A stretch of DNA of 64,000 nt from Patescibacteria group bacterium (GTDB taxonomy: Bacteria > Patescibacteriota > Minisyncoccia > Phycocordibacterales > UBA918), in NCBI GenBank assembly GCA_019752815.1, contig JAIELQ010000005.1, positions 49,625 through 113,624 of the forward strand, written 5' to 3'. How positions within the stretch are numbered: the first letter of the stretch is position 1; each line of letters opens with the position of its first letter. The notes under the pieces are model-generated. The model was not told where the DNA came from. It worked only from the letters and a program-made list of their open reading frames with translations, and searched no databases. This document shows positions 846 through 54,865 of this stretch, piece after piece. Position numbers and translations under genes: made by a program.

Positions 846-925
846 GCGTTGTGCTGAGGTAAAATATTTTCTCACCGTATAAAAATACGGCTCGCAAAAT
901 TTTCCTTGCACGCCTTGTACTTCAT
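846..925 (+). repeat. Structured intergenic repeat, copy 1 (about 85 nt, family of 6)
   Basis: Shares GCGTTG..GGTAAAA..internal hairpin CCGTAT/ATACGG..TTTTCCTTGCACGCCTTGTA with copies at 6294, 29755, 30962, 41985 and 54781. Begins 25 nt after the atpE stop. Confidence 0.7.
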
Positions 926-1153
926 ACAATTTAGCGAAAATTACTCACACTGTGTTTGTTTAACATAAACTTTAGCGTAAAGTTTAAAGTTTAAAACACA
1001 CTCTGTTTATTAGTTAAGCTCATTGCAAGATTGTCTAAGATTCGCGAAGTACAAAAGAAATAATTCGACACGTACTACTGTACGGAGAGAATAATTTCTT
1101 GCAGTACGACAAAGAAGATTGGATGATATTGCGATAAGCGCTCTCTCAGCACT

Positions 1154-1603
1154 ATGGAAGATATTATTAAAGCTTTCGGAATCGACGGTCGTCTGATCCT
1201 CATTCAAATTGTAAACTTCGCCATTTTGATGGTGGCGTTGGTGTATTTTTTGTACAACCCAATCTTGAACATGCTTAAAGCGCGTGAAGAAAAGATTGTG
1301 CAGGGGATCAAAGACGCCGAAGCAGCTGCTGCTGCCAAAGCCTCTGCGGATGCCGAGAAAAAAGTAATTTTGACTGATGCACACACCGAGGCTGCAGCAG
1401 TTAATGCTCGTGCTAAATCAGCGGCCGATGCGACTGCAAGCGACATTGTTGCCAAAGCTCAAACTGATGCCGCTGCTGTTATGGCAGACGCTGCGCTGAA
1501 GGCGCAGCAACTAAAGCTCCAGGCTGAACGAGATAGTCAAGCGGAAATTGCCAAAACAGCTATACTCGCTGCTGAAAAAATTCTCACCCAAAAGAACGCG
1601 TAA
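1154..1603 (+). CDS. atpF: ATP synthase subunit b
   Basis: One N-terminal TM helix followed by a long Ala/Lys/Glu-rich helical stalk. Operon position is between atpE and atpH. Confidence 0.8.
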   Translation: MEDIIKAFGIDGRLILIQIVNFAILMVALVYFLYNPILNMLKAREEKIVQGIKDAEAAAAAKASADAEKKVILTDAHTEAAAVNARAKSAADATASDIVAKAQTDAAAVMADAALKAQQLKLQAERDSQAEIAKTAILAAEKILTQKNA

Positions 1604-1609
1604 TAAACT

Positions 1610-1993
1610 ATGAAAGACACCTACGTACACGCACTGTTGGAACTCATTCAATCTGGGCAACCGATTGATACTGTTTTGATGAATCTGACAAAGGTGTTGG
1701 CGTCACGTGGGCACAGTAAACTGCACGGATCAATTCTAAATGACTTGATGCATGCCTTAGAGTTGGCACAGGAGAATAGCTTACCAAAAGTCACGGTAGC
1801 AAAAGAAGGAAGTGTGAGTGAAGCTGAAATAAAAGCAGCACTTGTAAAGCTTTCCGTACCACATGATGAGTACAAAGTTACCTATAATCCTAACATTATT
1901 GGAGGACTGATTGCCACGTACCAGAGTAAACAATTAGATCAAAGTTACCAAACCAAGTTACGAGAGTTATATCAATCCATTATCACCACTTAA
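1610..1993 (+). CDS. atpH: ATP synthase subunit delta (OSCP), short form
   Basis: 127-aa helical protein directly upstream of atpA. Call is by synteny only; the match to delta subunits is weak but recognisable. Confidence 0.65.
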   Translation: MKDTYVHALLELIQSGQPIDTVLMNLTKVLASRGHSKLHGSILNDLMHALELAQENSLPKVTVAKEGSVSEAEIKAALVKLSVPHDEYKVTYNPNIIGGLIATYQSKQLDQSYQTKLRELYQSIITT

Positions 1994-2007
1994 TTATCAT
2001 AACCATT

Positions 2008-3573
2008 ATGAGCACCACAATTATCGACCGCATTAAAAAAGAAATCGCTGCCTTGGATGTAACGGCCACCCCCAAAGAGGTTGGGGTAGTGACTGCTGTA
2101 TCAGACGGTATCATTGAAATCTCTGGACTGACTTCTGCCCGAATGATGGAAATGGTGGTGTTTGGTGTGGGCGAAGGCGCAACGCTGGAAACTGCACTCA
2201 AACAAACGACTGTTCTCTATGGTCTCGTGTTGAACCTCGAAGAGGATGTGGTGAAGGTGGTGGTACTTGGTGAAAGTGCGGGCATCCGTGAAGGGATGAC
2301 TGTGTTCCGCACCAACACGCTCCTGTCTGTTCCCGTTGGTGACGGGATTGTGGGTCGAGTGGTGAATGCCCTTGGTGAAATGATTGATGGTAAAGGGGCA
2401 ATCACAACTGATAAAAACATGCCGATTGAACGCGTGGCGTACGGAGTAATGGATCGTTCATCGGTAAACGAACCAATCCACACGGGGATTAAGGCTATCG
2501 ACTCAATGATTCCAATTGGACGTGGGCAGCGTGAGCTCATCATTGGTGACCGCGGAACTGGTAAAACTACCATTGCCATTGATACTATCATCAACCAAAA
2601 GTACGAACCGGCCGCCAAGCGACCAATTTGTATTTATGTAGCGATTGGTCAAAAGCGTTCAAAAACTGCCAACATCATGGCTCAGCTTGAAAAAGCGGGC
2701 GCAATGGAGTACACCACCATCATCGCAACATCAGCGTCTGAAGCATCACCACTACTATTCCTCGCACCATTTACGGGAATGGCGATTGGTGAATACTTCA
2801 TGCAACAAGGGAAAGACGTTTTGATTATTCTCGATGACCTTAGTAAGCACGCCGTGGCCTACCGTCAAATGTCACTGTTGCTTAGGCGTCCACCAGGACG
2901 TGAAGCGTACCCAGGAGACATCTTTTACCTCCACTCACGTCTGCTCGAACGTTCAGCAAAATTGTCTGCTGAATTAGGTGGCGGCTCAATCACCGCGTTG
3001 CCGATTATCGAAACCCAAGAGGGTGACGTGTCGGCGTACATTCCAACGAACGTTATTTCTATTACCGACGGTCAGATTTTCCTCGAAACTGATTTGTTTA
3101 ACAAAGGCATCCGCCCAGCGCTTAACGTTGGTATTTCCGTATCACGTGTAGGTAGTAGTGCACAAACTAAAGCCATGAAGGCCGTAGCCGGAAAGATTCG
3201 TCTTGAGCTCGCACAGTTCCGAGAACTCGAAGCTTTTATGCAATTTGCCTCTGATCTCGATGCAGACACCAAAGCTCGTATCGATAGTGGTCGCAAATAT
3301 GTGGAGATGCTCAAGCAAACACAAAACAACCCAATGCCGTTCTACAAACAAGTAGTGTCTATTTATGGAGCGAACACTGGATTGTTTGATGGGGCTGATC
3401 CAAAAAATGTCCGTGCTATTGAAGATGCGTACCAGGCATTTATTGAACGAGACCGAAAAGCAACACTCGATGCAGTAGAAAGTACCCGAGCATTGTCTGA
3501 TGAACTCAAAGCCGACCTCGATAAATCAATTGTAGATTTCAAAGAAGCGAATAGTAACCTCTACACAGCGTAA
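2008..3573 (+). CDS. atpA: ATP synthase F1 alpha subunit
   Basis: Walker A GDRGTGKT and the alpha-subunit signatures QRELIIGDRGTGKT and ILDDLSKHAVAYRQMSLLLRRPPGREAYPGDIFYLHSRLLER. Confidence 0.97.
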   Translation: MSTTIIDRIKKEIAALDVTATPKEVGVVTAVSDGIIEISGLTSARMMEMVVFGVGEGATLETALKQTTVLYGLVLNLEEDVVKVVVLGESAGIREGMTVFRTNTLLSVPVGDGIVGRVVNALGEMIDGKGAITTDKNMPIERVAYGVMDRSSVNEPIHTGIKAIDSMIPIGRGQRELIIGDRGTGKTTIAIDTIINQKYEPAAKRPICIYVAIGQKRSKTANIMAQLEKAGAMEYTTIIATSASEASPLLFLAPFTGMAIGEYFMQQGKDVLIILDDLSKHAVAYRQMSLLLRRPPGREAYPGDIFYLHSRLLERSAKLSAELGGGSITALPIIETQEGDVSAYIPTNVISITDGQIFLETDLFNKGIRPALNVGISVSRVGSSAQTKAMKAVAGKIRLELAQFRELEAFMQFASDLDADTKARIDSGRKYVEMLKQTQNNPMPFYKQVVSIYGANTGLFDGADPKNVRAIEDAYQAFIERDRKATLDAVESTRALSDELKADLDKSIVDFKEANSNLYTA

Positions 3574-3585
3574 CCAAATACATTT

Positions 3586-4494: not shown

Positions 4495-4495
4495 T

Positions 4496-4825
4496 ATGGA
4501 ATCAAATCGCCAAGAAAAATTTCAGAATTCAATTCGTAATGAATCACAGATTCAGCTACTTTTTACTAAGGCCATCAATCAAAGTGTTGATTTGTTTTCT
4601 GTAGATTTGCAAAAAAATGAGCTAGAGCAATTAACTGCCTTGGCAGCAGAAGAACATACAACACCCTTTGGTAAAGTTGCTGAAATGAGAAGGCTCGCTC
4701 GTGAGTCGGACAGAGCAGCATTTAAAGGAGTTATTAGTAATATACTTCTTACTATTTCTGAAAATCTGACTGATGCAGAACGAAATCAGTTCGCTGGTAC
4801 AAGCACAAGTTTGCTTGACATCTAG
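4496..4825 (+). CDS. Hypothetical protein inserted between atpG and atpD
   Basis: 109-aa ORF. Its start overlaps the atpG stop, and it sits inside an otherwise canonical operon. No recognisable domain. Confidence 0.5.
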   Translation: MESNRQEKFQNSIRNESQIQLLFTKAINQSVDLFSVDLQKNELEQLTALAAEEHTTPFGKVAEMRRLARESDRAAFKGVISNILLTISENLTDAERNQFAGTSTSLLDI

Positions 4826-4887
4826 TAGTTCTTAGTAGTTAGAGCCTCAGGGGCTTTCACTACTCAGTGGTACTGAGTCATTATTAA

Positions 4888-6270
<1,383 letters not shown>

Positions 6271-6293
6271 AAGCGATAGCAGGCAACCTACTG

Positions 6294-6375
6294 CGTTGCG
6301 CTGCGGTAAAATAAGTTTCAACGTACAATAAAGTACGTCTCAAATTATTTTCCTTGCGCGCCTTGTATCTTACCT
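6294..6375 (+). repeat. Structured intergenic repeat, copy 2
   Basis: GCGTTGCGCTGCGGTAAAA..hairpin ACGTAC/GTACGT..TTTTCCTTGCGCGCCTTGTA. Begins 24 nt after the atpD stop. Confidence 0.7.
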
Positions 6376-6418
6376 ACTCTAGCTCCTCCTGATAATCTGA
6401 TATAAATTACTAAGAATT

Positions 6419-6568: not shown

Positions 6569-6571
6569 AAC

Positions 6572-10823: not shown

Positions 10824-11360
10824 ATGTTAACCAAAAAGGAAAAAATCCAATTACAAATCGTCATGACTAATGCTCATGCTGAGTTTGAGCAAGGTCTGTT
10901 GCGACATGCTCATTTTCGGGTGAGTGACAGTGGTCGGTGTGATGACTTGGTACAAGACACCTTTCTCAAAACCTGGGTGTACCTTATAAAGGCAGGCAAG
11001 ATATCTTCTATGAAACCTTTTCTGTATCACGTATTGAATTGCTTAATTATTGATGAGTACCGAAAAAAGAAAAGCGTATCACTTGATATATTGCTGGAAG
11101 CTGGATTTGAACCCGGATCGGATGATTTTGACAGAGTTGTAGACACTATTGATGGTAAGGCAGAGGTAGCTCTCATTATGACTCTGCCAGTAGCGTATCA
11201 AAAGATTATGAGTTTGCGCTACATAGATGACTTGTCACTCTCAGAGATTGCGCTGGAAACTGGTTTGACGAAAAATTTAGTAGCAGTAAAAACGCACCGT
11301 GGCATGGAAAAATTACGACAACTGTATGACGAGCGTTTTTCAAAAAAAGTTTTAGTGTAA
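10824..11360 (+). CDS. ECF-type RNA polymerase sigma-70 family factor
   Basis: Region 2 is VQDTFLKTWVYL. Region 4 HTH is LSLSEIALETGLTKNLVAVKTHRGMEKLRQ. Length is 178 aa. Confidence 0.8.
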   Translation: MLTKKEKIQLQIVMTNAHAEFEQGLLRHAHFRVSDSGRCDDLVQDTFLKTWVYLIKAGKISSMKPFLYHVLNCLIIDEYRKKKSVSLDILLEAGFEPGSDDFDRVVDTIDGKAEVALIMTLPVAYQKIMSLRYIDDLSLSEIALETGLTKNLVAVKTHRGMEKLRQLYDERFSKKVLV

Positions 11361-19574: not shown

Positions 19575-20165
19575 TTACTCTGATTCTGTGATGTCTTGCA
19601 CAGATGGTGTTTTGAGTTTTATCTTTTGTTTAATTTCGTCACCTTTGGCAAACTGTATGTAAATTGTTTCGCTGGCGGCTCGTTTGCTTATGCCTTCAAT
19701 TGCGGTCGCTTCGTCGGGACTCGCCTCCATTGCTTCAACATTCAGTTCCCATTTTCGGCGCAGAAATTTCAACTTCCGTAACGTAATTAAACGCTCAATA
19801 AGGGTGACCACTTCTTTAGCACTACGTGGCACACTGATGCCTGCAGGCGTATTTCTCCAACCTAACGTGCCAGTTGCCCAGGTAACGGAACGTTGTTTGC
19901 CGTTGTCGGTGAGCGTTGTTTTATGAGTGCGTGCGTACTCTTTTAGAATGGTGAATTTTTCAGCAAACTCGTCTGACACTTTTGCTGCCTTTTGGTCAGC
20001 TACCACCACCAATACATTGATGGCTTGATTCAGTTCAACCTGCTGCTGCTCAAGTTTGAGCTTCAGTTTCTCTAGTTCTCCCAACAACTGGGCAGCTTCA
20101 GCATCGTTTGTCGGTATAGGGAAGGTATGTTTTTTGGCCACGATAGGCTCCTTTGAAATGAACAT
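19575..20165 (-). CDS. Phage Mu Gam-like host-nuclease inhibitor family protein
   Basis: N-terminal coiled coil (LLGELEKLKLKLEQQQVELNQAINVL) then the Gam-like core KTTLTDNGKQRSVTWATGTLGWRNTPAGISV..AKEVVTLIERL. Confidence 0.6.
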   Translation of the reverse strand: MFISKEPIVAKKHTFPIPTNDAEAAQLLGELEKLKLKLEQQQVELNQAINVLVVVADQKAAKVSDEFAEKFTILKEYARTHKTTLTDNGKQRSVTWATGTLGWRNTPAGISVPRSAKEVVTLIERLITLRKLKFLRRKWELNVEAMEASPDEATAIEGISKRAASETIYIQFAKGDEIKQKIKLKTPSVQDITESE

Positions 20166-20410: not shown

Positions 20411-20743
20411 CTCCCCGGGCAGGATTCGAACCTGCGACCAATCGATTACACGAATCTCCTAATTTCTTAGAGGGGTGGACTATATCATCACCGGTTGTAT
20501 TTCTACACGACGGTGCAAGGCGCTTCGAATGCATTTTTGCATCCTACTCCCGTAAGGGATAGTCTCTGAACCTTCAATTGGATTTCTCCAAAAGCTTGGC
20601 TGCTGATTGCCCACAGCACACGAATGTCTGTTTCGGGGTTCCAGCAATTCACCTTGTTTGCAATAACGATTTCTCGATAAGGCTGCTATTTTGAACTTTG
20701 TCCACTGTTACAGTCGACTGCTCTACCGCTGAGCTACCGAGGA
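20411..20743 (-). tRNA. tRNA-Asn(GUU) interrupted by a group I intron. Exon 1 is 20710..20743, the intron is 20449..20709, exon 2 is 20411..20448.
   Basis: Exons on the minus strand read UCCUCGG-UA-GCUC-AGCGGUA-GAGC-A-GUCGA-CUGU / UAA-UCGAU-UGGUC-GCAGG-UUCGAAU-CCUGC-CCGGGGA-G. The acceptor stem, D arm and discriminator G73 match bacterial tRNA-Asn (compare E. coli UCCUCUGUAGUUCAGUCGGUAGAAC...). The intervening 261 nt ends in G and carries the group I R element GUUCAGAGACUA, the S element AUAUAGUCC, and P/Q-like elements AAUUGCUGGAA and AAUCAGCAGCC. Confidence 0.8.
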
Positions 20744-20854
20744 GCGTAATAATCATGCGCACTTAATTCCCTAATGGGAAATAAGTGCCTGTATTGTACA
20801 GAAAAATAGGATTTATTCAACCGTGGGGGCGGGGAGGGGGTAAATGGGGTGAGG

Positions 20855-28225: not shown

Positions 28226-29725
28226 TTAAAACTCATCGAGATATTTAATGTCTGCACCGAGACTGGCTAATCGTGCAACGAGGTTTTCATAACCGCGGTT
28301 GATACTGTAGATATTACGCAGGACCGAGCGGCCGGATGCGCCCAACATCGCAATCAAGAGAATCGTAGCGGGACGCAAGGCGGGCGGGCAGATGAGCTCA
28401 GCTGATTTTAGCTGTGTTGGTCCGGTGATGTAGATACGGTGAGGGTCGGCCAAAACGGTGTCAGCACCGAGTTTTTCGAGCTCGGTAAAATAAATGGCGC
28501 GTTTTTCATACATCCAATCGTGAATGAGGGTTTGACCAGCTGCCTGGGTCGCAATCACCGCGTAGAAGGGGAGGTTGTCGGCATTGAGTCCAGGGTAGGG
28601 CCTGGAGTGTACTTTTTCTGGTGAAGCGTGTAGTTTGCTTGGTTTGATTTTTAAATCTACCAGTTTGGTGTATTCATTGACTGCTAGGTATGGTTTTGAT
28701 GTGCTGTATTGCAGACCCATTTTTTCGAGTACCAACAGTTCAAGCTCAAGAAACTCAATTGGAGCTCGGGTAATAGTGATGGCAGAATTAGTAACAATTG
28801 CAGCTGCAATAAAAAACATACTGTCGGTTGGATCCTCGGCCAGGGTGTATTCAATATCGACATTGATAGTACGAACACCGGTAACGGTTAGTGTGGTGGT
28901 GCCGATACCTTCAATTTGCACCCCAAATAATTTTAAGAAGACACAGATTTCCTGCACCATGTAGTTGGCACTCGCATATTTGATGACCGTTGTGCCTTCG
29001 TTAAGTGCTGCTGCGAACAGGACATTTTCAGTCACGGTGTCCCCGGATTCGTAAAGAATAATTTCAGACGGTTTTTTAAGTACGGTTGCGACTCTGAATT
29101 CTTTTTCTGTGGTTTCTATACTGACACCATAGTGTTCAAGGGCGTAAAAATGAGGGCGAACGGTGCGACTGCCGAGTTTGCAACCGCCTGATTGCGGAAG
29201 TGCAAAACTCGGCATAGTGTGAATCAGTGCACCAATAAACATTACAATACTGCGGGTTTTGCGGGCAGCATCAACATCGATTTTTTTGAGATCAAATTTT
29301 TTGGGTGGGGTGATCGTAATGGTACTGCCGCTCCAAACAATATGCATGCCGATACTCTGTAGCACCTCGATAATGCGGTGCACTTCCTCGATACGAGGCA
29401 TTCTGTGGAGGGTGGTGACGCCGCGGTTTAATAGTGACGCACATAGAAGTCCCACTGCACCATTTTTACTGGTATTAGTTTCAATGGTGCCAGATAGCTT
29501 CTTGTTCCCATTGATTTCGACATTAACGGTCCCAGGTGAGAGGGTGATGAGATTTTTACCGAGTGCGGTCCCGATTTTTTTCAGCATCTCGGCACTGATG
29601 TTTTGGGTGCCTGATTCAAGACGAGCAATAGCGCTTTGTGTAGTTTTAAGTTTTTTAGCGAGTTGTGTTTGGGTGAGTCCGACTGACTCTCTCAAATCAG
29701 CAATTCTGTTTCCAATATTTTCCAT
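28226..29725 (-). CDS. murA: UDP-N-acetylglucosamine 1-carboxyvinyltransferase fused to an N-terminal XRE-type HTH domain
   Basis: Residues 1-60, IADLRESVGLTQTQLAKKLKTTQSAIARLESGTQNISAEMLKKIGTALG, form an HTH_XRE. The remaining roughly 430 aa has the MurA/EPSP fold (SKNGAVGLLCASLL and related motifs). 499 aa in total. Confidence 0.85.
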   Translation of the reverse strand: MENIGNRIADLRESVGLTQTQLAKKLKTTQSAIARLESGTQNISAEMLKKIGTALGKNLITLSPGTVNVEINGNKKLSGTIETNTSKNGAVGLLCASLLNRGVTTLHRMPRIEEVHRIIEVLQSIGMHIVWSGSTITITPPKKFDLKKIDVDAARKTRSIVMFIGALIHTMPSFALPQSGGCKLGSRTVRPHFYALEHYGVSIETTEKEFRVATVLKKPSEIILYESGDTVTENVLFAAALNEGTTVIKYASANYMVQEICVFLKLFGVQIEGIGTTTLTVTGVRTINVDIEYTLAEDPTDSMFFIAAAIVTNSAITITRAPIEFLELELLVLEKMGLQYSTSKPYLAVNEYTKLVDLKIKPSKLHASPEKVHSRPYPGLNADNLPFYAVIATQAAGQTLIHDWMYEKRAIYFTELEKLGADTVLADPHRIYITGPTQLKSAELICPPALRPATILLIAMLGASGRSVLRNIYSINRGYENLVARLASLGADIKYLDEF

Positions 29726-29754
29726 ATATTTAATAGTAAAAACGACGCACTTCA

Positions 29755-29838
29755 GCGTTGGTCTACGGTAAAACTTTTCTCACCATACCAGTACGTATGG
29801 CTCGCAAAGTTTTCCTTGCCCGCCTTGAATTGCATTCG
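29755..29838 (+). repeat. Structured intergenic repeat, copy 3
   Basis: GCGTTGGTCTACGGTAAAA..hairpin CCATAC/GTATGG..TTTTCCTTGCCCGCCTTGAA. Confidence 0.7.
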
Positions 29839-29932
29839 TTTATAACTATCAAATAATATAGCATATCTGCTATATACATGTCATTTTCTAATTGGTGGAA
29901 AAGTGCTGAAGGTGGTACACTAGGGGCCTTAT

Positions 29933-30946
29933 ATGTTCGACAGATTTACTCCTAAAATTGGTATCGACCTCGGGACGACGAGTGTCTTAGTGTTTGTGCC
30001 TGGACAGGGAATTGTACTCAATGAGCCGTCGGTAGTAGCGGTAGGTGAAAACAATACGGTCCTCGCCGTGGGAGCAGAAGCCAAACAAATGATTGGACGA
30101 ACACCGGACACTATTCGGGCGTACCGGCCGATGAAAGATGGAGTAATTGCTGATTATCGCGTGACTGAGGCAATGTTACGATACTTTTTGCAAAAGGCAC
30201 TGAGCAAATACAATATTTTTAAACCTGATGTGATGGTATCGGTACCAGCGGGAGTAACCTCAACCGAACGGCGCGCAGTGGTAGAAGCCACGATTAAAGC
30301 GGGTGCGCGTAATGCCTACGTAGTAAAAGAACCAATTCTCGCTGCTATTGGGGCGGGGGTTCCGATCTATGAACCCCAAGGACACATGATTGTTGATATT
30401 GGTGGTGGAACGATTGACGTGGCAGTGATTTCTCTCGGTGGGATTGTAGCTGCAAACTCAGTCAAATGTGCCGGTAACCGCATTGATGCTGCTATCATTA
30501 ATTTTGTTAAAAAGACACGGAATTTATCGATTGGTGAAAAAACGGCTGAAGAAGTAAAAATCAAAGTAGGTTCAGCTCTGCCCCTTGAAGAAGAGTTGGT
30601 GATGGAACTCAAAGGTCGCGATGTCTTTACCGGATTGCCACGGACAACGGAGATTAAAACTAATGAAGTGGTGCGAGCAATTGCTGTTGAACTGCGTGAA
30701 ATGGTTAAAGCCATTAAAGATGTATTCCAGGATACGCCCCCAGAATTAGCATCAGATATTATTGATGGAGGGATTATTATGACCGGAGGAACTTCACAGT
30801 TACGAAATTTTCCAGAGTTAGTTAAACGACGGACGGGAGTGAAAGCACAGCTCGCAGATCAGGCGTTGTTTTGTGTGGTTAAGGGGACGGGTGTGGCACT
30901 GGAGCACCTCACCACTTACAAGCGTGCCATTTTAACAAAACGCTAA
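29933..30946 (+). CDS. mreB: Rod shape-determining protein MreB (paralog 1)
   Basis: IGIDLGTTSVLVFV..LNEPSVVA. Actin/Hsp70 fold motifs DIGGGTIDVAVISLGGIV and IIMTGGTSQL. Confidence 0.92.
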   Translation: MFDRFTPKIGIDLGTTSVLVFVPGQGIVLNEPSVVAVGENNTVLAVGAEAKQMIGRTPDTIRAYRPMKDGVIADYRVTEAMLRYFLQKALSKYNIFKPDVMVSVPAGVTSTERRAVVEATIKAGARNAYVVKEPILAAIGAGVPIYEPQGHMIVDIGGGTIDVAVISLGGIVAANSVKCAGNRIDAAIINFVKKTRNLSIGEKTAEEVKIKVGSALPLEEELVMELKGRDVFTGLPRTTEIKTNEVVRAIAVELREMVKAIKDVFQDTPPELASDIIDGGIIMTGGTSQLRNFPELVKRRTGVKAQLADQALFCVVKGTGVALEHLTTYKRAILTKR

Positions 30947-30961
30947 ATTTGAGTGATTACT

Positions 30962-31040
30962 TTGTTGTGCTCGAAATTGTTTCGGTCAACGTATAAACAT
31001 ACGTCTCTCTCAAAAATTTCAACCACGCCTCGTACTCATC
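30962..31040 (+). repeat. Structured intergenic repeat, copy 6 (more diverged)
   Basis: TTGTTGTGCTCG..TCAACGTATAAACATACGTCTC..CAACCACGCCTCGTACT. Begins 16 nt after the mreB stop. Confidence 0.6.
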
Positions 31041-31257
31041 TCACATTAAGTATTTTGTGACGAAGCGGTAATTTGGCGCATCTGCTTTGTTGCTCTTCAA
31101 AAAATTGTTTTCAATGTGCAAGAAGCACACCTCAAACAATTTTTTTTCGTGCGCCGCGCATCTATCGCCAAATAACCACTTCTTTTGAATATTGACATAA
31201 CGTATTTTAATGTTATTGTGTAGCAAGTTTTTAACTGGCTACTAAAGGGAGAAAGCC

Positions 31258-34740: not shown

Positions 34741-34745
34741 GTACT

Positions 34746-37502
34746 ATGAAAGAGGGCTATCCATCAAATAAATTGGATGTGGCGTATCGAGGCGACTTCG
34801 AAGACCCTGCGCGGACTGCTTTTTCTAATGCACAGTTGCCGCCCCAAAGAGTGACACTCGAAGATTTTGCAAAATATCCGTTTGGTCCTTCTGAGATAAC
34901 TTCAAAAAGTGATTACGTAAAACATGTGCTCACCTGGTTTTCAAAAGCACTCATCGATGCTGGATATAAACCCAATGAAGTTGATAATCTCATTCGTAAA
35001 TCATTAGATACTATTGATTTTAATAGACCGGAAGCGATGTACGTAGCTGATATCAATCGTATTATTCAAAATTTTTATAAGGCAGCTCCTGGTAAAAATA
35101 GTTCGACTGAGGCAACTGAGGTTCCAGCTCCAGTTGCTGCTGGGCAAGCTGAGATTATTGAGACTTCTGTTCAGTCAACACCAACACCAATAACGCCTGT
35201 TGTACCGCAACAGAGTGAAACGCACATTTCTCCTTTTGCACAAAAAGTTGAACCGTTTCGGTCGGCAGATGATGGTGTGCCCAAAGAGGTCACAATTAAT
35301 ACTAGAACTCCAGATCTGAGTTCGGTTTCGAGTGTAGAAATACAACAAGAAGAAGAAACTCTGCCACTCGCTACAGAATTTGATGATCGAGCGCAAGAAT
35401 ATGCCGAATACGGTAATCGTTCAATAAAAATAACACCTTCTTTCCCTGAAGCTACTAACGTGACAGCGGTTAAAAAAGATAATTTCGAAAATCCTCCTCA
35501 GGTGACTCGTAATGAACAGTTAGCTTCGACACCGCTCATTCTAACCCCTGAAATGCGGGTTGTTGATCCGAATGAACCAATTGTGCTTGAGACAGTGAGT
35601 GCTGATGACGAGGTCGCGTTGGAGAAGCGGAATGTTGGTTTAGAATATCAAAGCAAGCTTGATGCGCTCAACACACAAGCGTTTAATCATGAAGCGTACA
35701 TAGAATTTGTGTTTGATGTGCACACGGGTCTTAGACATGAATATGATGGAGTAATCAATTCAGCGCGAAATAACCTAAAGCGATTTGATGGCTTTTATGC
35801 ACCGTCCACAATTGAAAAACAAGCACTGCAATTATTATCAAGTCTCCAAGGTCAGTACGCCAAGATGCAGAATGTACAATCTGATTACGGTCTTATTCGA
35901 GGCGCACTGACTGAGAAATTAAGTGAGAGTCCTACCGACGCAATCGAAGCCGAAATTAAGTCTTTGTCACAGAGTTATCTTGATGCTACACAAAAACTTT
36001 TTGCAAACATTAGCAAGCTTGAAGGTTTGATAGAAGAAGTGAAACAAGAAGAAAAACCGTCAGTAGCAGAAGTGTATCGGGCACAATTTGAAAAACTGCA
36101 GACTGAAGGTAATCAGGTGTTGCGGTCACTATCAGCCAGTCACCCCTTGTATGAGCGGCTAAAGACAGCTGTAGAAGTTGATTTACAAAAAATTATTGCA
36201 CAAGCGTCTGTTGAAAATGGGGGAGATAAAGCGGTACTTGAAAACTCCTCGAACTTTATAGCGAGAAGGGATCAAATTAAAGAGCTGATTTCATTTATCA
36301 AAAAAGAACAAGAGTATCAAGATTTCTTTGCGCGTGCTCGGGCGCGGGTGCAAAAACTTGAATCACAATTTGAAATAATTCCGACGGGAGATAAAGGAAT
36401 GCAGGTAAAAACAATCCTTGCAGAAAATATTGTAAAAATTAAACAGGCTCTTAGTGGAACTGATTCACAAACCGCCACCGTAGGCGTGCTTGAGAACTTG
36501 AATCAACAAAAAAGCATTATTGAGATGTTACTTCGTGATTCAGAAGAGTCAATTTCGTCATTACCGCAGAGTGAGACTGTCGTACAACAAGAAGTGGGGT
36601 CAAGGGTGTTAACTGATGCTGAGTTGATTGCCGTTGTTGAAAAAACTCCGCTTGTTGAAAATATGGCAGAAGTGCAGGATCGCTATCAGATGCAGCGGGC
36701 AGAGATTGAAAAATATCTAACGTACCAACGTGAGCAACAGAGCAGGGAACGTTTCTCTGGACCCGTGTATGAAAAAGCAAAACGACTAGCAGGCATGCTA
36801 CATTTGGGTACGATTGGTAAAGCGGCTGCGGTACTTTTGACGCTCGCTGGACCAGCTGGTGTCTCGAGTCAAAAATCAGACCTGAATATTCTTGGTGATC
36901 TCAACATGTCAGCAGGTGTGTTAGCGCAACCGGATTTTGATTACGCCGCTATTTCAGAATTTCTCCGGACGGCTGAGGGATTTAGGGTGATTTCTGAAAC
37001 AGTAGCACCGGCAGTGTCAACTGTTGCTCCAGAGTTACCAAAAGTACCAGTGTCAGTAGAGACTGTGCCCGGTGTGATTTTGCCAGACATGGTCAGTCGT
37101 TCAAATGACGAAACCCAGGATATGCCATCAGAAATCTTTAGTGATTTAGCTGATGAGGTACCAAAAGACAAGGGTATTGAATTTGCAAGTCCAAATAAAT
37201 CTAATGTTCCAGAAGCTTTACGTAAGCCATACAAAATAAATTTTGGTGATAAATTCTGGGATATTAATGAGGGAAAAACGCTCGCTGGTAAATTGCCGGT
37301 CATGTCACAAATAAATCCTTCCTTAAAACAAGCACTCATAGACCGTATGCGCGATAAAATTAATAATGACAGAGCACTCAGAGACGCTATTGGCGGGTTT
37401 GGTAAAAATGCTGATCAGCTCCGTACCGGAGAATTAATGAATCTCGACAAACTTAATGAACTGGGGGTGAGTGTAGCCGCTGACTACAGTTATCTAAAAT
37501 AA
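34746..37502 (+). CDS. Giant hypothetical coiled-coil protein (918 aa)
   Basis: Long predicted helical or coiled-coil regions with one internal hydrophobic segment (AAAVLLTLAGPAGV). No enzymatic motif recognised. Start is 6 nt after the ATPase stop. Confidence 0.55.
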   Translation: MKEGYPSNKLDVAYRGDFEDPARTAFSNAQLPPQRVTLEDFAKYPFGPSEITSKSDYVKHVLTWFSKALIDAGYKPNEVDNLIRKSLDTIDFNRPEAMYVADINRIIQNFYKAAPGKNSSTEATEVPAPVAAGQAEIIETSVQSTPTPITPVVPQQSETHISPFAQKVEPFRSADDGVPKEVTINTRTPDLSSVSSVEIQQEEETLPLATEFDDRAQEYAEYGNRSIKITPSFPEATNVTAVKKDNFENPPQVTRNEQLASTPLILTPEMRVVDPNEPIVLETVSADDEVALEKRNVGLEYQSKLDALNTQAFNHEAYIEFVFDVHTGLRHEYDGVINSARNNLKRFDGFYAPSTIEKQALQLLSSLQGQYAKMQNVQSDYGLIRGALTEKLSESPTDAIEAEIKSLSQSYLDATQKLFANISKLEGLIEEVKQEEKPSVAEVYRAQFEKLQTEGNQVLRSLSASHPLYERLKTAVEVDLQKIIAQASVENGGDKAVLENSSNFIARRDQIKELISFIKKEQEYQDFFARARARVQKLESQFEIIPTGDKGMQVKTILAENIVKIKQALSGTDSQTATVGVLENLNQQKSIIEMLLRDSEESISSLPQSETVVQQEVGSRVLTDAELIAVVEKTPLVENMAEVQDRYQMQRAEIEKYLTYQREQQSRERFSGPVYEKAKRLAGMLHLGTIGKAAAVLLTLAGPAGVSSQKSDLNILGDLNMSAGVLAQPDFDYAAISEFLRTAEGFRVISETVAPAVSTVAPELPKVPVSVETVPGVILPDMVSRSNDETQDMPSEIFSDLADEVPKDKGIEFASPNKSNVPEALRKPYKINFGDKFWDINEGKTLAGKLPVMSQINPSLKQALIDRMRDKINNDRALRDAIGGFGKNADQLRTGELMNLDKLNELGVSVAADYSYLK

Positions 37503-40870: not shown

Positions 40871-41956
40871 ATGACTACTGTTCTCATTTTTTTAGCCGTA
40901 CTATTCGTACTTATTCTGGTACATGAGTGGGGTCATTTTATTGTGGCAAAGCTCACCCGGATGCGGGTTGATGAATTTGCCATTGGGTTTCCACCGCGAT
41001 TGTTCTCTCGTAAATATGGTGAAACTGAATACAGTTTAAATGCTTTGCCACTCGGTGGATATGTACGTATTTATGGTGAAGATCCAACAGCGGTTGAGGG
41101 TGAGGTTGCTGATAAAAGTCGAGCCTTTGGATCGCGACCAAAATGGGCCCAGGCCCTGGTATTGCTCGCTGGGGTGACCATGAACTGGATTTTTGCTTGG
41201 TTTTTGCTGGTAGTTATTATGTTAGTGGGTGTCCCAACCCAGATTACAGAAAAGGACGCAACCGACAATTCGGTAATATATATCGAAAGTGTGCTCGAGG
41301 GTTCTCCGGCAGATACCGTATTACCGCCACAATCAAAACTTATCAGGGTAGAAAGTGGTGACTCTGTGCTCAATCCAATTCTGCCGTCTACCTTTAGTGA
41401 GTTTGTGGCGAGTCGTGCGGGAGAAACAATTGATATAACGTATCAGGATGTGAATGGTGCAGAAAATACCGTGTCAGTTATTCCGCAGACCGGTGTTATA
41501 GAATCTTCACCAGAACGGGCAGCGCTTGGTGTTTCAATGTCATTAGTTGAAACTGTACAAAAACCGCTTGGTACGGCGATTGTGGATGCTGGTATACAAA
41601 CCTGGACGATGACAAAAACTATTGTGGTTGGATTTGGAAAATTAATCACTGGCCAAGTCAGTTTAAATCAAATTTCTGGCCCGGTAGGTATTGCTGGTTA
41701 TGTGGGTGATGCAGCAGCTGTTGGGGTAACAACACTGTTGTACCTTACTGCGTTTATTTCGGTAAACTTGGCTGTGATTAATTTATTACCAATTCCAGCA
41801 CTAGATGGTGGACGACTAGTATTTGTGGCCATTGAAGCGGTAACTCGTCGACCAATTCCGCCAGTGTGGGCGTCGCGAGTTAACTTGGTTGGGTTTGCGG
41901 CACTGATGTTACTTATGTTGCTAGCAACCATTAGCGATATATCCAAGTTATTTTAG
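40871..41956 (+). CDS. rseP: RIP zinc metalloprotease RseP (site-2 protease)
   Basis: HEWGHFIVAKL (HExxH) in TM1. PDZ-containing middle. LNLLPIPALDGG near the C-terminus. Confidence 0.9.
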   Translation: MTTVLIFLAVLFVLILVHEWGHFIVAKLTRMRVDEFAIGFPPRLFSRKYGETEYSLNALPLGGYVRIYGEDPTAVEGEVADKSRAFGSRPKWAQALVLLAGVTMNWIFAWFLLVVIMLVGVPTQITEKDATDNSVIYIESVLEGSPADTVLPPQSKLIRVESGDSVLNPILPSTFSEFVASRAGETIDITYQDVNGAENTVSVIPQTGVIESSPERAALGVSMSLVETVQKPLGTAIVDAGIQTWTMTKTIVVGFGKLITGQVSLNQISGPVGIAGYVGDAAAVGVTTLLYLTAFISVNLAVINLLPIPALDGGRLVFVAIEAVTRRPIPPVWASRVNLVGFAALMLLMLLATISDISKLF

Positions 41957-41984
41957 AGAAGACATCCATAAACGACACACTTCT

Positions 41985-42068
41985 TCGTTGCTGCTGCGGT
42001 ACATTTTCTTCCACCGTACAAGAAGTACGTTTCCAGAAAATGTCCTTGCGCGCCTCGAATTGTACTCG
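41985..42068 (+). repeat. Structured intergenic repeat, copy 4
   Basis: TCGTTGCTGCTGCGGTACATTTTC..hairpin CGTAC/GTACG..ATGTCCTTGCGCGCCTCGAA. Begins 29 nt after the rseP stop. Confidence 0.7.
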
Positions 42069-42237
42069 TTTCTGAATGTCTAATTGAGCATTTGCGTTTA
42101 AAACAATAAAAGGTCGCTTTGCGGCCTTTTATTGTTTTGTGCTACACTTTGAATTATGAAGATTTTTAACTCTCGCCATCTGCCCGTGGGGTAATCTCAC
42201 TACTTAATGCTGTTTTTACTATTTAAAAAAAATTAAT

Positions 42238-43520: not shown

Positions 43521-43546
43521 AAAAACAGCGATTAATCGCTGTTTTT
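43521..43546 (+). terminator. Rho-independent terminator after proS
   Basis: AAAAACAGCGATTAATCGCTGTTTTT. Confidence 0.75.
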
Positions 43547-43743
43547 TGTTTAGTTATTAAAGTAAACAGAATTATTGACCCTGTTTCAATAATCGAAAAG
43601 TACAAGGCGGCAAGGAGTAAGTGAAGAATCCGTACCTTATGTACGGTGACTGAACTTGCGACGCAGTCAACACAGTAATTTTTGATTATTGGGACAGGCG
43701 CTATTTTGGAGATAAATCTTTTTCATAGTAGAATAGGGGACTT

Positions 43744-44820
43744 ATGAGCTTATTCGGTCGCACATTTTCCAAACTGCTTAATTCTGTATCGACAGACATT
43801 GGGATTGATTTGGGTACCGCCAATACATTAATGTATGTGAAAGGTAAAGGAATCATTCTAAACGAACCAACTATTGTTGCTATCAACAAAAAAACGGGAC
43901 AACTCGTGGCAGTGGGTAATGAAGCGAGGGCGATGCAGGGGCGAACACCGACGCACATTGAAGTTGTGCGACCACTTGTTGATGGAGTAATTTCAGACTT
44001 TGAAGTGACAGAGGAAATGCTCGGCTACTTAATTGCTAAAGTTCGCAATGAGATGCGTACGTTGATTGCACCACGGGTGTTAGTAGGCGTGCCGTCAGGT
44101 ATTACTAATGTGGAAATGCGGGCAGCACGTGATGCGGCTCGTAATGCGGGAGCACGCGAAGTATTTTTGATTGAAGAACCAATGGCGGCAGCCATAGGCG
44201 CTAAGTTACCAATTGGTAAAGCAGTTGGTAGTATGATTATTGATATTGGAGGCGGCACTACTGATATTGCCGTCATTTCACTCAATGGAATTGTAGTAGC
44301 AAAAAATTTGCGCGTAGCTGGCGATCATTTAAGTGCGTCCATTTCAACGTATATTCGTGACCAATTTAAAGTGTATGTCGGTGAAAAAACAGCTGAAGAT
44401 GTGAAAATTGCCTTAGCTGCCGTTGAGCACAAAGATGGCGCCAAAGAACATGTTATCCGCGGTCGAGATGTAATGACGGGTTTGCCGCGTGAAGTAGTCA
44501 TCACCGATAGTGATGTCCGAGATGCAATTGCGCCTCAGGTAGATAGTATTGTTGAGGCGGTACGAACGGTGCTTGAAAAAACTCCTCCCGAAGTGCTGGC
44601 AGATATCATGCAACGGGGAATTCATCTCTCAGGCGGCGGCGCACTTATTCCTGGCCTGCAGTCACTTTTGGAAGAGGTACTTGAAGTGCCAGTAATCGTC
44701 GTTCCTGATCCGTTGCGTGCAGTAATTCGTGGAGCTGGTATTGTGATTGAGAACTTAGAATTTTATGAAGAAATCCTTATTGATAAAGAAGGCGAACTCT
44801 CGCCACATCTCTCTAACTAG
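43744..44820 (+). CDS. mreB: Rod shape-determining protein MreB (paralog 2)
   Basis: IGIDLGTANTLMYV..LNEPTIVA, DIGGGTTDIAVISLNGIV and IHLSGGGALI. Confidence 0.92.
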   Translation: MSLFGRTFSKLLNSVSTDIGIDLGTANTLMYVKGKGIILNEPTIVAINKKTGQLVAVGNEARAMQGRTPTHIEVVRPLVDGVISDFEVTEEMLGYLIAKVRNEMRTLIAPRVLVGVPSGITNVEMRAARDAARNAGAREVFLIEEPMAAAIGAKLPIGKAVGSMIIDIGGGTTDIAVISLNGIVVAKNLRVAGDHLSASISTYIRDQFKVYVGEKTAEDVKIALAAVEHKDGAKEHVIRGRDVMTGLPREVVITDSDVRDAIAPQVDSIVEAVRTVLEKTPPEVLADIMQRGIHLSGGGALIPGLQSLLEEVLEVPVIVVPDPLRAVIRGAGIVIENLEFYEEILIDKEGELSPHLSN

Positions 44821-47783: not shown

Positions 47784-48260
47784 TTGCATATGAATGATCA
47801 ACAATCCTATCTGACTGCTGAAAAGTTTGATGAGTTGAAGAAAGAGTTGGACCATTTAAAAACTGTTCGTCGCAAGGAAGTAGCTGAATCACTTGAGTAC
47901 GCACGTAGTCTCGGAGACCTCTCTGAAAACGCTGAGTACCAAGAAGCTCGCGATATGCAAGGAGCAATCGAAGAACGCATTGGTCACCTTGAAAAAGTTA
48001 TCAAAGAAGCAAAAATTGTTGCTCACGACAAAAAAGGTGACGTGATTGTACTCGGATCAACCGTGACAATCCAAAAAGATAAAGACAAAGACAGTCACAC
48101 CTACACCATCGTAGGAGCCGAAGAAGCCAACATCCACGAAAAGAAACTATCCTACCTCTCACCACTGGGTGAATCACTCATGGGGAAGATCAAGGGAGAT
48201 GAGTTCAGTTTTGAGACTCCGGCTGGGAAACAAAAGTACAAGGTCTTGAAAGTTGAGTAA
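47784..48260 (+). CDS. greA: Transcription elongation factor GreA
   Basis: LTAEKFDELKKELDHLKTVRRKEVAESLEYARSLGDLSENAEYQEARDMQ is the canonical GreA coiled coil with acidic tip residues. Confidence 0.92.
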   Translation: MHMNDQQSYLTAEKFDELKKELDHLKTVRRKEVAESLEYARSLGDLSENAEYQEARDMQGAIEERIGHLEKVIKEAKIVAHDKKGDVIVLGSTVTIQKDKDKDSHTYTIVGAEEANIHEKKLSYLSPLGESLMGKIKGDEFSFETPAGKQKYKVLKVE

Positions 48261-48264
48261 AATA

Positions 48265-48525
48265 GGGAGGGAAATCCAAAATCCATCATCTGCGTTGTTG
48301 GTTGGCAAAAAATTTTGTTCAAGGTGAGAAAGTCTGGGAGACTTTCCCAAGAGGTTGCCAGCTAGTTTGAAAAACTAGCGACAACCTGAACAGCTTCTGT
48401 AAGAAGCAGAAAGCACACCTCACAATATTTTTCACCACCCGCCTAGCAGCTGAAAGAATTTTGAACTTCCATCGACCATTTAGGTGTTTACAAAACCGAC
48501 CGCTCACGCGGTCGGTTTTTGTTAT
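48265..48525 (+). ncRNA. Candidate structured non-coding RNA (unclassified) between greA and lysS
   Basis: About 260 nt without a credible ORF. Stable hairpins (GGTTGCCAGCTAGTTT-GAAA-AACTAGCGACAACC, and CTTC-TGTAA-GAAG). Ends in the terminator CCGACCGC-TCAC-GCGGTCGG followed by TTTTTGTT at 48496..48522. Confidence 0.35.
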
Positions 48526-50400: not shown

Positions 50401-50406
50401 GCTGCA

Positions 50407-51795: not shown

Positions 51796-51819
51796 GTCAC
51801 CCAACCACTCTCTATATTT

Positions 51820-52707: not shown

Positions 52708-52713
52708 TCGCCT

Positions 52714-53034
52714 ATGAAAACCATCGTCGCCATTATTAAACAACCAAGTTACGGATTCTATTTCAACGTTGGAATTATACTCTTCTTTGCCTTGGTTTTT
52801 TTGTATATGTATTTTCTGTCGATGTCGGTAGTGCACGTGGTGTTGCGCAAAGAAGTCATCCAAAAGGTAGGAACCGTTGAGTCAGATATTGCCATGCTCG
52901 AAGCCTCGTATATTGATGCGCAACATAAAGTTAGTAACAAAATTGCAGCCTTAGAAAACTTTACTGAAACCGAAGCCAAGATTTTTGTCAGCCGAACGGA
53001 ATCAACCTTGGTATTGTCTGACACAGCACGGTAA
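52714..53034 (+). CDS. ftsL: FtsL-like cell division membrane protein
   Basis: 106-aa single-TM protein between rsmH and ftsI. Call is by synteny. Confidence 0.55.
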   Translation: MKTIVAIIKQPSYGFYFNVGIILFFALVFLYMYFLSMSVVHVVLRKEVIQKVGTVESDIAMLEASYIDAQHKVSNKIAALENFTETEAKIFVSRTESTLVLSDTAR

Positions 53035-53038
53035 AACT

Positions 53039-54754
53039 ATGCGGAAAACAACCAATCTCCGTATTCGAATAATTTCCGCCTTCATTTTTTTTATTGGTTT
53101 TTTGTTAATTGTTCGCTTGTATCAAATTCAAATTCAGCAAGCCAGTGCCTATCAAGAAAAAGCTGAGCGTCAGTACGTACACACCGCTAAAGATGTGTAC
53201 AATCGTGGCAGTATTTATTTTACAACTAAAGACGGTGAAAAGGTGTCAGCCGCCTCAATCACCTCGGGCTATTTGCTCGCGGTTAATCCATCTCTGATTA
53301 CAAATCCAGACGAGGTCTATGAGAAACTAAGTCTCTTTACCACCCTTTCACGCGAAGAGTTTGTTGAAAAAGCTACTCTGCCAAACCGCACCTACGTAGA
53401 GATTGAGCCAAAACTAGATGAAGAAACGTATAAAAAGATTTCTGAATTGGATGTAAAAGGCGTGATGTTATACCGCAATCAGTGGCGCTATTATCCTGGA
53501 GATGCTGTATCAGCCCGTACGATTGGGTTTGTTGGATTTGGCAGTGATGATGGGCAGTTGCGGGGTAAGTACGGACTTGAGCGCTACTATGACGAAACAT
53601 TGTATCGCGATAACACCATTTTATCGGTAAACTTTTTTGCGGAGATTTTTTCGAACCTGGGTAGTTTAGTATTTGAAGATGAGACTAAAAAGAGCGGTAG
53701 TGTGGTCACGACTATTGAGCCGACTGTAGCCCGTATGCTCGATCGTATTTTGCAGGAAACCCAAGAGCAATACCAGAGTAAGCTAAGCGGCGGAATTATT
53801 ATGGATCCAAAAACCGGAGCAATATACGCAATGAATGCGATACCTACGTTTGACTTAAATTCTCGTGGTACTACGTCAATTGAACAATTTGAAAATCCGT
53901 TAGTGGAGGATGTATACGAAATGGGTTCAATCATTAAGGCACTTACGATCGCTGCGGGACTCGATAGTAAAGTTATCACACCTGAATCAACCTACTACGA
54001 TGCAGGTTTTCTTGAACTTAACTCAAAAACAATTAAAAACTTTGACGGCAAGGGTCGCGGTACGGTATCTATGCAGGAAGTAATTAATCAGTCCCTTAAC
54101 ACTGGAGTGTCACACATTGTGAAGTTAATGGGTAAGGACAAATTTCGAACGTATTTCGAAGGCCTCAAATTAGGTAGTGAAACCGGCATTGATTTACCGA
54201 GCGAGGCGCAGGGTTTGATGCAGAACTTGAAGTCTCCGCGCGACGTAGAATATGCGACCGCATCGTTTGGACAGGGGATTGCGATGACGCCGGTTGCGAC
54301 CGCGCGAGCACTCGCTACCTTGGGTAACGGTGGACATTTGGTTACACCCCATATTGTAAAAGAAATTGAATATGATGACGGTACGAAAAAAGAAGTCGCC
54401 TACCCAAATGGTGCACAGGTATTTACACCTGAAACTAGTGAGACTGTCTCACGAATGTTGACCAATGTAGTAGATGATGCCTTGCGTGGTGGTAAAGTCG
54501 CTTTGCCTCATCACAGCATTGCTGCCAAAACGGGTACCGCTCAAATGGCTAATCCTAATGGAGGAGGGTATTACGAGGATCGCTACCTCCACTCTTTCTT
54601 TGGATATTTTCCATCGTATGATCCAAAATTTATTGTGTTCCTATATACGGTAGACCCGCGTGGAGTGCAGTATGCGTCAGAAACATTGACTGAGCCATTT
54701 ATGGATATTACAAAGTTTCTCATCAATTACTATTCCATCCCCCCAGACCGATGA
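53039..54754 (+). CDS. ftsI: Penicillin-binding protein, FtsI/PBP3-like transpeptidase
   Basis: ORF 52985..54754. The likely start is the Met at 53039 (MRKTTNLRIRIISAFIFFIGF TM helix). SxxK (GSIIKALT), SxN (SLNTG) and KTG (KTGTAQ). Confidence 0.88.
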   Translation: MRKTTNLRIRIISAFIFFIGFLLIVRLYQIQIQQASAYQEKAERQYVHTAKDVYNRGSIYFTTKDGEKVSAASITSGYLLAVNPSLITNPDEVYEKLSLFTTLSREEFVEKATLPNRTYVEIEPKLDEETYKKISELDVKGVMLYRNQWRYYPGDAVSARTIGFVGFGSDDGQLRGKYGLERYYDETLYRDNTILSVNFFAEIFSNLGSLVFEDETKKSGSVVTTIEPTVARMLDRILQETQEQYQSKLSGGIIMDPKTGAIYAMNAIPTFDLNSRGTTSIEQFENPLVEDVYEMGSIIKALTIAAGLDSKVITPESTYYDAGFLELNSKTIKNFDGKGRGTVSMQEVINQSLNTGVSHIVKLMGKDKFRTYFEGLKLGSETGIDLPSEAQGLMQNLKSPRDVEYATASFGQGIAMTPVATARALATLGNGGHLVTPHIVKEIEYDDGTKKEVAYPNGAQVFTPETSETVSRMLTNVVDDALRGGKVALPHHSIAAKTGTAQMANPNGGGYYEDRYLHSFFGYFPSYDPKFIVFLYTVDPRGVQYASETLTEPFMDITKFLINYYSIPPDR

Positions 54755-54780
54755 TTTGCGCTTGATCACACGCATCTGCT

Positions 54781-54865
54781 GCGTTGTTGCGGGTAATTTT
54801 TTCAGTCAACGTACATTTAGGTACGCCTCCCGAAAAAATTACCCGCACGCCTTGCATCTGCATGC
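54781..54865 (+). repeat. Structured intergenic repeat, copy 5
   Basis: GCGTTGTTGCGGGTAATTTTTT..hairpin CGTAC/GTACG..AAAAAATTACCCGCACGCCTTGCA. The outer stem is a perfect 15-bp pairing. Confidence 0.7.

Follow-up and report, generated by a model that had tools for sequence, protein, structure and literature searches.

The window analysed here, a 64,000-nucleotide (nt) stretch of a Patescibacteria group bacterium of the Phycocordibacterales (contig JAIELQ010000005.1, positions 49,625 to 113,624 of the forward strand), carries the atp operon, two mreB genes, rseP, greA and ftsI. Between these genes and at their ends lie copies of an intergenic repeat that was first noticed, as six copies of about 85 nt, from inspection of the letters alone (here termed the original prediction). 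We report that these copies belong to a previously undescribed, lineage-specific family of imperfect palindromes, each of them a single long hairpin of about 125 nt to which we refer as a rod; the family is REP-like in kind and is distinct in architecture and placement.

Detection and specificity of the rod family

The six copies of the original prediction are all present in the window at the coordinates assigned to them, with the conserved 5' and 3' blocks that had been described, and their alignment has a mean column identity of 71%. When the window was scanned without filters, a covariance model built from these six copies (R1) recovered nine copies at E values of 8e-9 or lower, with the next match at E = 0.07, and a second model, built from 34 copies (R2), recovered exactly ten at 50 to 97 bits, the next match reaching 13.5 bits, so that more than 35 bits separate copies from background. 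The six copies first reported are therefore real, but the count of six falls short of the ten that the window holds, four having been missed. Together the ten rods account for 1.4 kb of the 64-kb window, or about 2%.

Related loci, designated here by L numbers, were taken around atpD, atpG, mreB and murF, and these relatives also carry rods: 40 copies were counted in the window and the relatives, and further ones were found in L243, L244, L032, L045 and L098, about 40 copies in all being detected in related Patescibacteria besides the ten of the window. A scan of a genome collection was made with TTTTCCTTGCNCGCCTTG as the query; among the matches listed, 118 loci were examined, mostly chance matches in high-GC genomes, and 3 of the 118 (L032, L045 and L098, all from Patescibacteria) hold true copies. 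R2 detected no copy in the 115 unrelated genome loci, each of which contains the exact 18-nt 3' block, none in 33 viral loci containing the same exact block and none in 60 atp loci of more distant bacteria. Unrelated control DNA amounts to about 1.6 Mb and yielded zero copies. The repeat family is genuine and is not a chance pattern.

Architecture and covariation

The repeat unit is about 120 to 130 nt long and not about 85 nt as first proposed, since the flanks that lie outside the coordinates originally assigned pair with each other in a copy-specific fashion. Rod lengths cluster at 119 to 132 nt, with a few rods of 143 to 155 nt and a long variant of 222 nt. Each rod comprises an apical helix of 5 to 6 bp, an A/T-rich helix, an asymmetric conserved junction, a 3-bp helix and copy-specific outer helices; the junction reads GCGTTG ... 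CGCCTTG in the orientation in which the repeat was first described (hereafter the C-rich strand) and CAAGGCG ... CAACGC on the complementary, G-rich strand. Over 28 nt on each side of the model match, duplexes between a copy's own 5' and 3' flanks average -13.4 kcal/mol, compared with -6.9 kcal/mol (standard deviation, 3.05) for mismatched partners, and the outer arms, complementary inside a copy, are unrelated between most copies. A perfect outer stem had been ascribed to the copy at 41985 (copy 5), but the long perfect stem, an inner stem of 16 bp, belongs instead to the copy at 54781 (copy 6; z-score, -5.45).

From the six originally listed copies alone, RNAalifold derived one long hairpin with 27 pairs, 13 of which show double compensatory changes, and the z-scores of their single-sequence folds range from -1.3 to -5.5; the common hairpin with compensatory changes that had been proposed is thereby borne out. 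In a model-fitted alignment in the C-rich orientation, pairing extends to 83% of cells and double changes to 24 of 27 pairs, and no shuffle matches the observed score. An independent MAFFT alignment of the G-rich strand, flanks included, gave an RNAalifold energy of -33.6 kcal/mol and 31 pairs, 28 of them with double changes and 92.8% of cells paired, in agreement with the earlier proposal that selection acts on pairing rather than on sequence; the covariation score of this alignment was 0.646, compared with at most 0.136 for slid controls, and none of 500 shuffles scored as high. The middle pair of the 3-bp helix beside the junction varies, with 16 copies carrying G-C, 9 carrying A-U and 8 carrying U-A. 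Pairs in the core helices are nearly all Watson-Crick (673 Watson-Crick pairs, 11 G·U and 16 A·C), and compensatory substitutions separate orthologous copies. Judged from these patterns of substitution, it is the hairpin, and not the sequence, that is maintained.

The pairing extends into coding sequence. The distal outer arm tracks synonymous differences in the last codons of atpD (L128, GATGAAGTT/AACTTCATC; L121, GATGAGGT/ACCTCATC), and in L098, L131 17840, L207 5361 and L032 the outer helices are perfect over 14 to 17 bp, stop codon included.

Placement at gene ends

The ten rods of the window are listed in Table 1.

Table 1. Rods found in the window, with their genomic context, covariance model score (R2), minimum free energy (MFE) of each strand and orthologous copies in relatives
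Rod	Position	Strand	In original prediction	Context	Score (bits)	MFE, + strand / - strand (kcal/mol)	Orthologous copies
Copy 1	819..943	+	Yes	Directly after atpE; palindrome begins on TAA stop 819-821	94.2	-31.2 / -38.8	In 11 relatives
Inverted copy	1018..1139	-	No	Between atpE and atpF; ends ~15 nt before atpF ATG (1154)	80.6	-42.2 / -27.6	L121 5897-5998; L122 6185-6286
Copy 2	6265..6391	+	Yes	After atpD; TAG stop 6268-6270 inside outer helix	97		L121, L122, L124, L128
Copy 3	29717..29866	+	Yes	Between start of - strand HTH (helix-turn-helix)/EPSP-synthase-like gene (29725) and mreB1 start (29933)	87.5
Copy 4	30935..31058	+	Yes	After mreB1; stop 30944-30946 inside outer helix; first of tandem pair	67.8		After mreB in L207, L243, L244
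Tandem second copy	31046..31200	+	No	After mreB1	86.3		After mreB in L243
Copy 5	41960..42081	+	Yes	After rseP (stop 41954-41956); canonical terminator then at about 42108-42140	86.9
Inverted copy (copy 8)	43580..43698	-	No	Between terminator (43521-43546) of class II aminoacyl-tRNA synthetase gene and second mreB (43744)	61.7
Long variant, 222 nt	48260..48481	+	No	After greA (stop 48258-48260); three-hairpin module of ~94 nt (about 48319-48412) in place of apical loop; terminator 48492-48519 downstream; z-score -4.9	50.2
Copy 6	54751..54882	+	Yes	After ftsI; TGA 54752-54754 inside outer helix	72.3	-47.4 / -73.2

The window encodes two MreB paralogues (29933-30946 and 43744-44820), the second heading an mreC/PBP2 cluster, and a rod adjoins each.

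Of 18 independent sites, 14 have a palindrome that starts at the stop codon of a gene, between -14 and +4 nt relative to that codon, and in these 14 the transcript carries the C-rich, weaker-folding strand; across independent loci, the distance from the stop codon to the start of the model match is mostly 14 to 18 nt. Six copies in the window come immediately after a gene, and in each of them the stop codon sits inside the outermost helix or within 4 nt of it, and not 16 to 30 nt upstream of the element as had been supposed. The further statements that every copy follows a + strand stop codon and shares the orientation of the genes need amendment: the first holds for seven of the ten copies, copy 3 not being preceded by a + strand stop codon or gene, and two of the ten are inverted.

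The C-rich strand is transcribed: several copies are internal to the atp operon, and three are bounded by a stop codon and a canonical terminator. We considered whether rods are themselves intrinsic terminators and rejected the idea, because no T-run (U-tract in RNA) follows them on either strand and because separate terminators are present after three copies. The canonical terminators at 42108-42140, 43521-43546 and 48492-48519 have an A-run before and a T-run after the stem and look bidirectional; the first and third are situated 11 to 22 nt downstream of rods and the second about 32 nt before copy 8, and the distance between rod and terminator is only 6 to 22 nt at copy 5, the long variant and L131 17840. 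Rod orientation goes with the gene strand: in L208, L207 and L244 it switches over no more than 8 kb, and the GC skew of the window is constant. This argues against a replication-oriented, single-strand DNA transposon of the IS200/IS605 type, and this candidate was also set aside.

Placement of this kind could be explained by an element that acts purely in cis at the level of the mRNA, with the sense, C-rich hairpin serving to stabilise the transcript, to direct its processing (by RNase III, or by blocking exonucleases) or to tune termination at the stop codon, and with the pyrimidine-rich internal loops acting as protein-binding or deliberately weak spots. Transcription of the sense strand in the atp operon and between stop codon and terminator, the tight spacing to the stop codon at independent loci, the sense orientation of all of the oldest and most conserved sites and the significant structure of the sense strand itself (mean z-score, -4.2) all speak for it. 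There is also a possible precedent, as Liang, Rudd and Deutscher reportedly found in 2015 that an E. coli REP reduces translation, via ribosome stalling, when the stop codon is no more than about 15 nt away. We nevertheless consider a purely sense-strand element doubtful on account of the strand polarity of the rods.

Strand polarity

As RNA, the complement of the strand first described folds better in 38 of 38 copies, with a mean MFE of -54.6 kcal/mol compared with -39.2 kcal/mol, and with DNA parameters it does so in 30 of 30, contrary to the original assumption that the mRNA-sense strand is the functional fold. The chemistry of the imperfect pairs has the same polarity. Among 30 less redundant copies, the non-Watson-Crick pairs in the outer arms of the G-rich strand are G·U (52), G·A (28), A·C (7) and C·U (6), which on the C-rich strand become A·C (52), C·U (28), G·U (7) and G·A (6), and the conserved internal loops become tandem G·A pairs beside a conserved G·U on the G-rich strand. 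C exceeds G on the C-rich strand in every copy (skew of -0.167 for 30 copies and -0.143 for the ten window rods), compared with a skew of +0.10 for adjoining coding strands and -0.017 for other codirectional spacers. The polarity is intrinsic to the element, since it is unchanged at four sites where the rod is inverted relative to transcription. An element selected purely as sense mRNA would be expected to have at least as many G·U as A·C pairs on the sense strand, where 7 and 52, respectively, were counted; the greater stability of the complement in every copy and the retention of polarity in inverted copies likewise count against such an element.

Two explanations of the asymmetry by mutation or copying errors were examined and discarded. 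Known deamination biases acting on an exposed sense strand or lagging-strand template predict a skew of the opposite sign, and other spacers are unskewed; copying by fold-back or template switching, with misincorporation of G·T, would place G·T on the sense strand, contrary to what is observed. In our reading of the sequences, the signals diverge: stop-codon anchoring points to the mRNA, and pairing chemistry points to the other strand.

If the G-rich strand were transcribed convergently, rods might be small antisense RNA genes, or insulators against antisense transcripts, whose RNA overlaps the stop codon and either acts on the mRNA or blocks antisense entry. On the G-rich strand the rod is an almost unbroken helix that contains G·U and tandem G·A pairs, as is typical of functional RNA; the complementarity of its 3' arm takes in the stop codon and the last codons; and one promoter-like site occurs on the - strand at 6444-6416, just downstream of copy 2. 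The remaining evidence is hard to reconcile with such genes: no conserved promoter motif was found upstream of rods on the G-rich strand, promoter-like sites are fewer than in shuffled sequence, the bidirectional-looking terminators noted above leave little room between terminator and rod, the spacer to the next gene is often only 20 to 30 nt, and no U-tract follows the rod on the G-rich strand. We therefore hold this explanation to be improbable.

Distribution, history and modular variants

Rods occur only in relatives whose AtpG is at least about 63% identical, with none in loci at or below 61%. They occupy orthologous positions after atpE in 12 genomes, after atpD in 5 and, outside the window, after atpG in 5. 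Further such positions follow mreB, frequently with two rods in tandem, and a - strand gene of 631 to 646 amino acids (aa), with tandem rods in L207 and L244 and a single one in L208. Orthologous spacers were compared in relatives that lack the element: in L119, without the atpD copy, atpD and atpC are 3 nt apart, and in L208, without copy 3, the spacer measures 87 nt and the indel takes in the outer arms.

Subfamilies defined by the outer helices reappear at unrelated loci. Between nonorthologous copies, the best identity is about 0.86 and the median 0.76, with no near-identical pair, from which we conclude that multiplication of the family was ancient. Apparent direct repeats flank two copies (GCATCTGC at copy 6 and ACCTACT at copy 2), and other copies are without them; we do not take them for target-site duplications, as they can be explained by the quasi-palindromic helices, and the single comparison of a filled with an empty site (copy 3 versus L208) revealed no clean duplication.

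Some rods carry additional structured modules. Module A, which consists of three hairpins over 94 nt and replaces the apical loop, is found in the window behind greA and in L124 behind atpE (6098-6188); the two are 97% identical, with a compensatory change between them, and a relative of the module, with a GG..CC to CC..GG swap, is located beside an intron-containing tRNA in L208 (about 1330-1450, - strand). Modules B and C are both branches at the conserved junction, B being inserted in one strand (L208, about 11040-11125) and C in the opposite strand (L208, about 3313-3395); the long rods that contain them span L208 11015-11215 and 3226-3430, respectively. In L207 (9680-9900), modules B and C are combined in a multibranched insert of about 200 nt (z-score, -5.3) that is enclosed by the same outer arms as window copy 3. 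No viral or Rfam match was obtained for module A and no Rfam match for modules B and C. The short rods may thus be the minimal form of a larger structured family.

A more far-reaching version of this idea is that rods are a new kind of gene-end element that acts via the strand complementary to the mRNA, either as a hairpin in template-strand DNA or as an antisense RNA, with a 3' arm whose complementarity to the stop codon and final codons of housekeeping genes is maintained, and that the short rods were perhaps miniaturised from a structured nucleic acid of about 250 to 300 nt into which modules A, B and C plug at apex and junction. We think this unlikely. Were it true, it would point to a ribozyme-like or protein-scaffold RNA family or to an undescribed structure-specific recombination or replication signal in bacteria.

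Comparison with known families and systems

The suggestion that the repeat corresponds to no described family stands: nothing was found in Rfam, in BLAST searches or in the literature. A scan of the window and four relatives with Rfam 15 at gathering thresholds returned only group I introns and a tRNA and no match to a rod; Rfam searches of five element regions in E-value mode (up to 5 to 10) gave chance matches or none; BLAST against plasmids, phages and E. coli genomes disclosed no similarity to rods; and literature searches found no description of the family. Likenesses to the K-turn, SRP RNA, Y RNA, RNase P RNA, twister and hammerhead were considered, and none survives inspection or Rfam. 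TIGR arrays are tandem arrays, unlike the dispersed single rods, and were also rejected. On the G-rich strand of several copies, the apical helix and its flanks (GAGCCGUAU...AUACGGU; for example, window 890-864, - strand) resemble the strands of group II intron domain V, and the segment includes the conserved G·U beside an "AG". Domain V is a 34-nt hairpin with an AGC triad, a 2-nt bulge and a GNRA loop and lies inside an intron; in rods the bulge, the distal helix and the GNRA loop are absent and no Rfam match was obtained, and the identification was abandoned.

The description of the repeat as REP-, MITE- or BIME-like holds in kind, in that rods are extragenic hairpin repeats kept by compensatory changes, and in behaviour they come closest to REP/REPIN, ERIC and Correia elements. 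With the REP, BIME and REPIN elements of Pseudomonas and Enterobacteria, which are mobilised by RAYT transposases, they share these two properties together with vertical persistence at gene ends and occasional tandem clusters. A REPIN is a symmetric doublet in which two REPs are inverted relative to each other and each end carries an invariant 16-mer, and a hairpin in single-stranded DNA or mRNA has been proposed for these elements. Rod ends, in contrast, vary between copies, and the conserved blocks are internal, asymmetric and not mutually inverted (GCGTTG versus CGCCTTG); rods are also polar, reside in a reduced Patescibacteria genome, are anchored on the stop codon and pair with coding sequence.

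ERIC/IRU elements of enterobacteria and Correia/NEMIS elements of Neisseria are imperfect palindromes of 100 to 150 bp in transcribed intergenic regions, some of them overlapping gene ends; they fold in the mRNA and alter its stability or processing in an orientation-dependent manner, and they carry sequence-conserved terminal inverted repeats and TA target duplications. Rods differ from these elements, and from MITEs, in having no conserved termini, no clear duplication and no similarity to the E. coli genomes, plasmids and phages searched. The intercistronic RNase III sites of phage T7 and the REP mRNA stabilisers are irregular hairpins between cistrons that set differential stability and expression; they act as sense RNA, whereas the sense strand of rods is the weaker fold.

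Integron attC sites have a conserved palindromic structure with little sequence conservation and are recognised, strand selectively, as a folded single strand. Rods resemble them in that structure is kept more than sequence, in their position at the 3' terminus of an open reading frame (ORF), from its stop codon onwards, in the better folding of the strand complementary to the ORF and in an apex that is variable and sometimes branched, and they could by analogy be attC-like or other single-strand recombination sites, with the folded bottom strand at the gene 3' end recognised by a recombinase. We rate this as very improbable. The stem base has no R''/R' boxes (RYYYAAC ... GTTRRRY), no R and L boxes and no AAC/GTT crossover motif, the conserved blocks being internal and asymmetric; the flanking genes are housekeeping genes (atp, mreB, rseP, ftsI and greA) that are syntenic in all relatives and not promoterless cassettes, and there is neither a cassette array nor an integrase in any sampled locus.

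Other features of the window

A group I intron (RF00028; 81.6 bits; 20456-20703) splits the anticodon loop of a tRNA at 20412-20745 on the - strand, with exons GCTCCTCGGTAGCTCAGCGGTAGAGCAGTCGACTGTAA and TCGATTGGTCGCAGGTTCGAATCCTGCCCGGGGAGCG; ARAGORN did not call this tRNA, and the arrangement is repeated in L208 (1031-1271). Group I introns in tRNA genes of Patescibacteria were recently reported (PMC13011429), and the intron-split tRNA of the window is consistent with that report. Adjoining it is an ORF with a bacteriophage Mu Gam-like domain (19575-20165, - strand; PF07352, E = 5e-17). At 33157-37502 on the + strand, a HerA/TraG-like ATPase (DUF87, T4SS-DNA_transf) is followed by a 918-aa DUF8128/DUF87 protein, and both are kept downstream of mreB1-clpP in relatives. 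An unannotated ORF of 109 aa (4496-4825, + strand) with no Pfam match is located between atpG and atpD and has counterparts of 105 to 107 aa in L119, L121 and L122 (three of four relatives sampled).

Discussion

Our preferred interpretation, to which we would assign a probability of about 0.5, is that rods constitute a REP/REPIN-like family whose maintained form is the G-rich hairpin, with the C-rich copy serving as mRNA punctuation. Rods would have multiplied long ago and would now stay, for the most part without moving, at the ends of genes. Maintenance or propagation may act on the G-rich hairpin formed in single-stranded nucleic acid, as has been proposed for REPINs, and the transcribed C-rich copy would be expected to fold into a rod of moderate stability that opens at the stop codon; this rod could punctuate the mRNA either as a barrier to 3' exonucleases or as a modulator of termination and of the coupling between cistrons (atpE/atpF, atpG/atpD and atpD/atpC).

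Several observations weigh against this interpretation. The window ORFs that were scanned and the Pfam tables for about 190 kb of relatives contain no transposase, RAYT (a Y1 HUH transposase) or integrase, the absence of near-identical nonorthologous copies gives no sign of recent movement, and rod ends are not conserved in sequence, unlike the 16-mers of REPINs or the terminal repeats of MITEs. We know of no process by which template strands would be laid bare as single-stranded DNA in an orientation set by the gene, and antisense transcription of the copies that are followed by a terminator would have to proceed without room for a promoter. Moreover, the stop codon is a landmark at the level of translation, and its position in the rods argues that the mRNA copy may matter at least as much as the other strand.

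The genomes of Patescibacteria are among the smallest and most streamlined and are thought to hold few mobile or regulatory elements. The conservation of rods at the same gene ends, in spite of an AtpG identity of only about 63%, implies either a function or a very persistent genomic replicator. Our covariance model can be used at once for the annotation of rods in metagenome-assembled genomes, in which they probably create spurious small ORFs; in L122, a gene caller had set a 58-aa ORF (5538-5714) over the rod copy at 5592-5692. The strand polarity of the family poses a testable question that is still open for REP-like elements generally, namely, which strand and which molecule are selected. 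Finally, the distal arm of the rod covaries with synonymous sites of the coding arm, and this, together with the start of the rod at the stop codon, indicates that a noncoding structure constrains, or tracks, the coding sequence at the ends of these genes.

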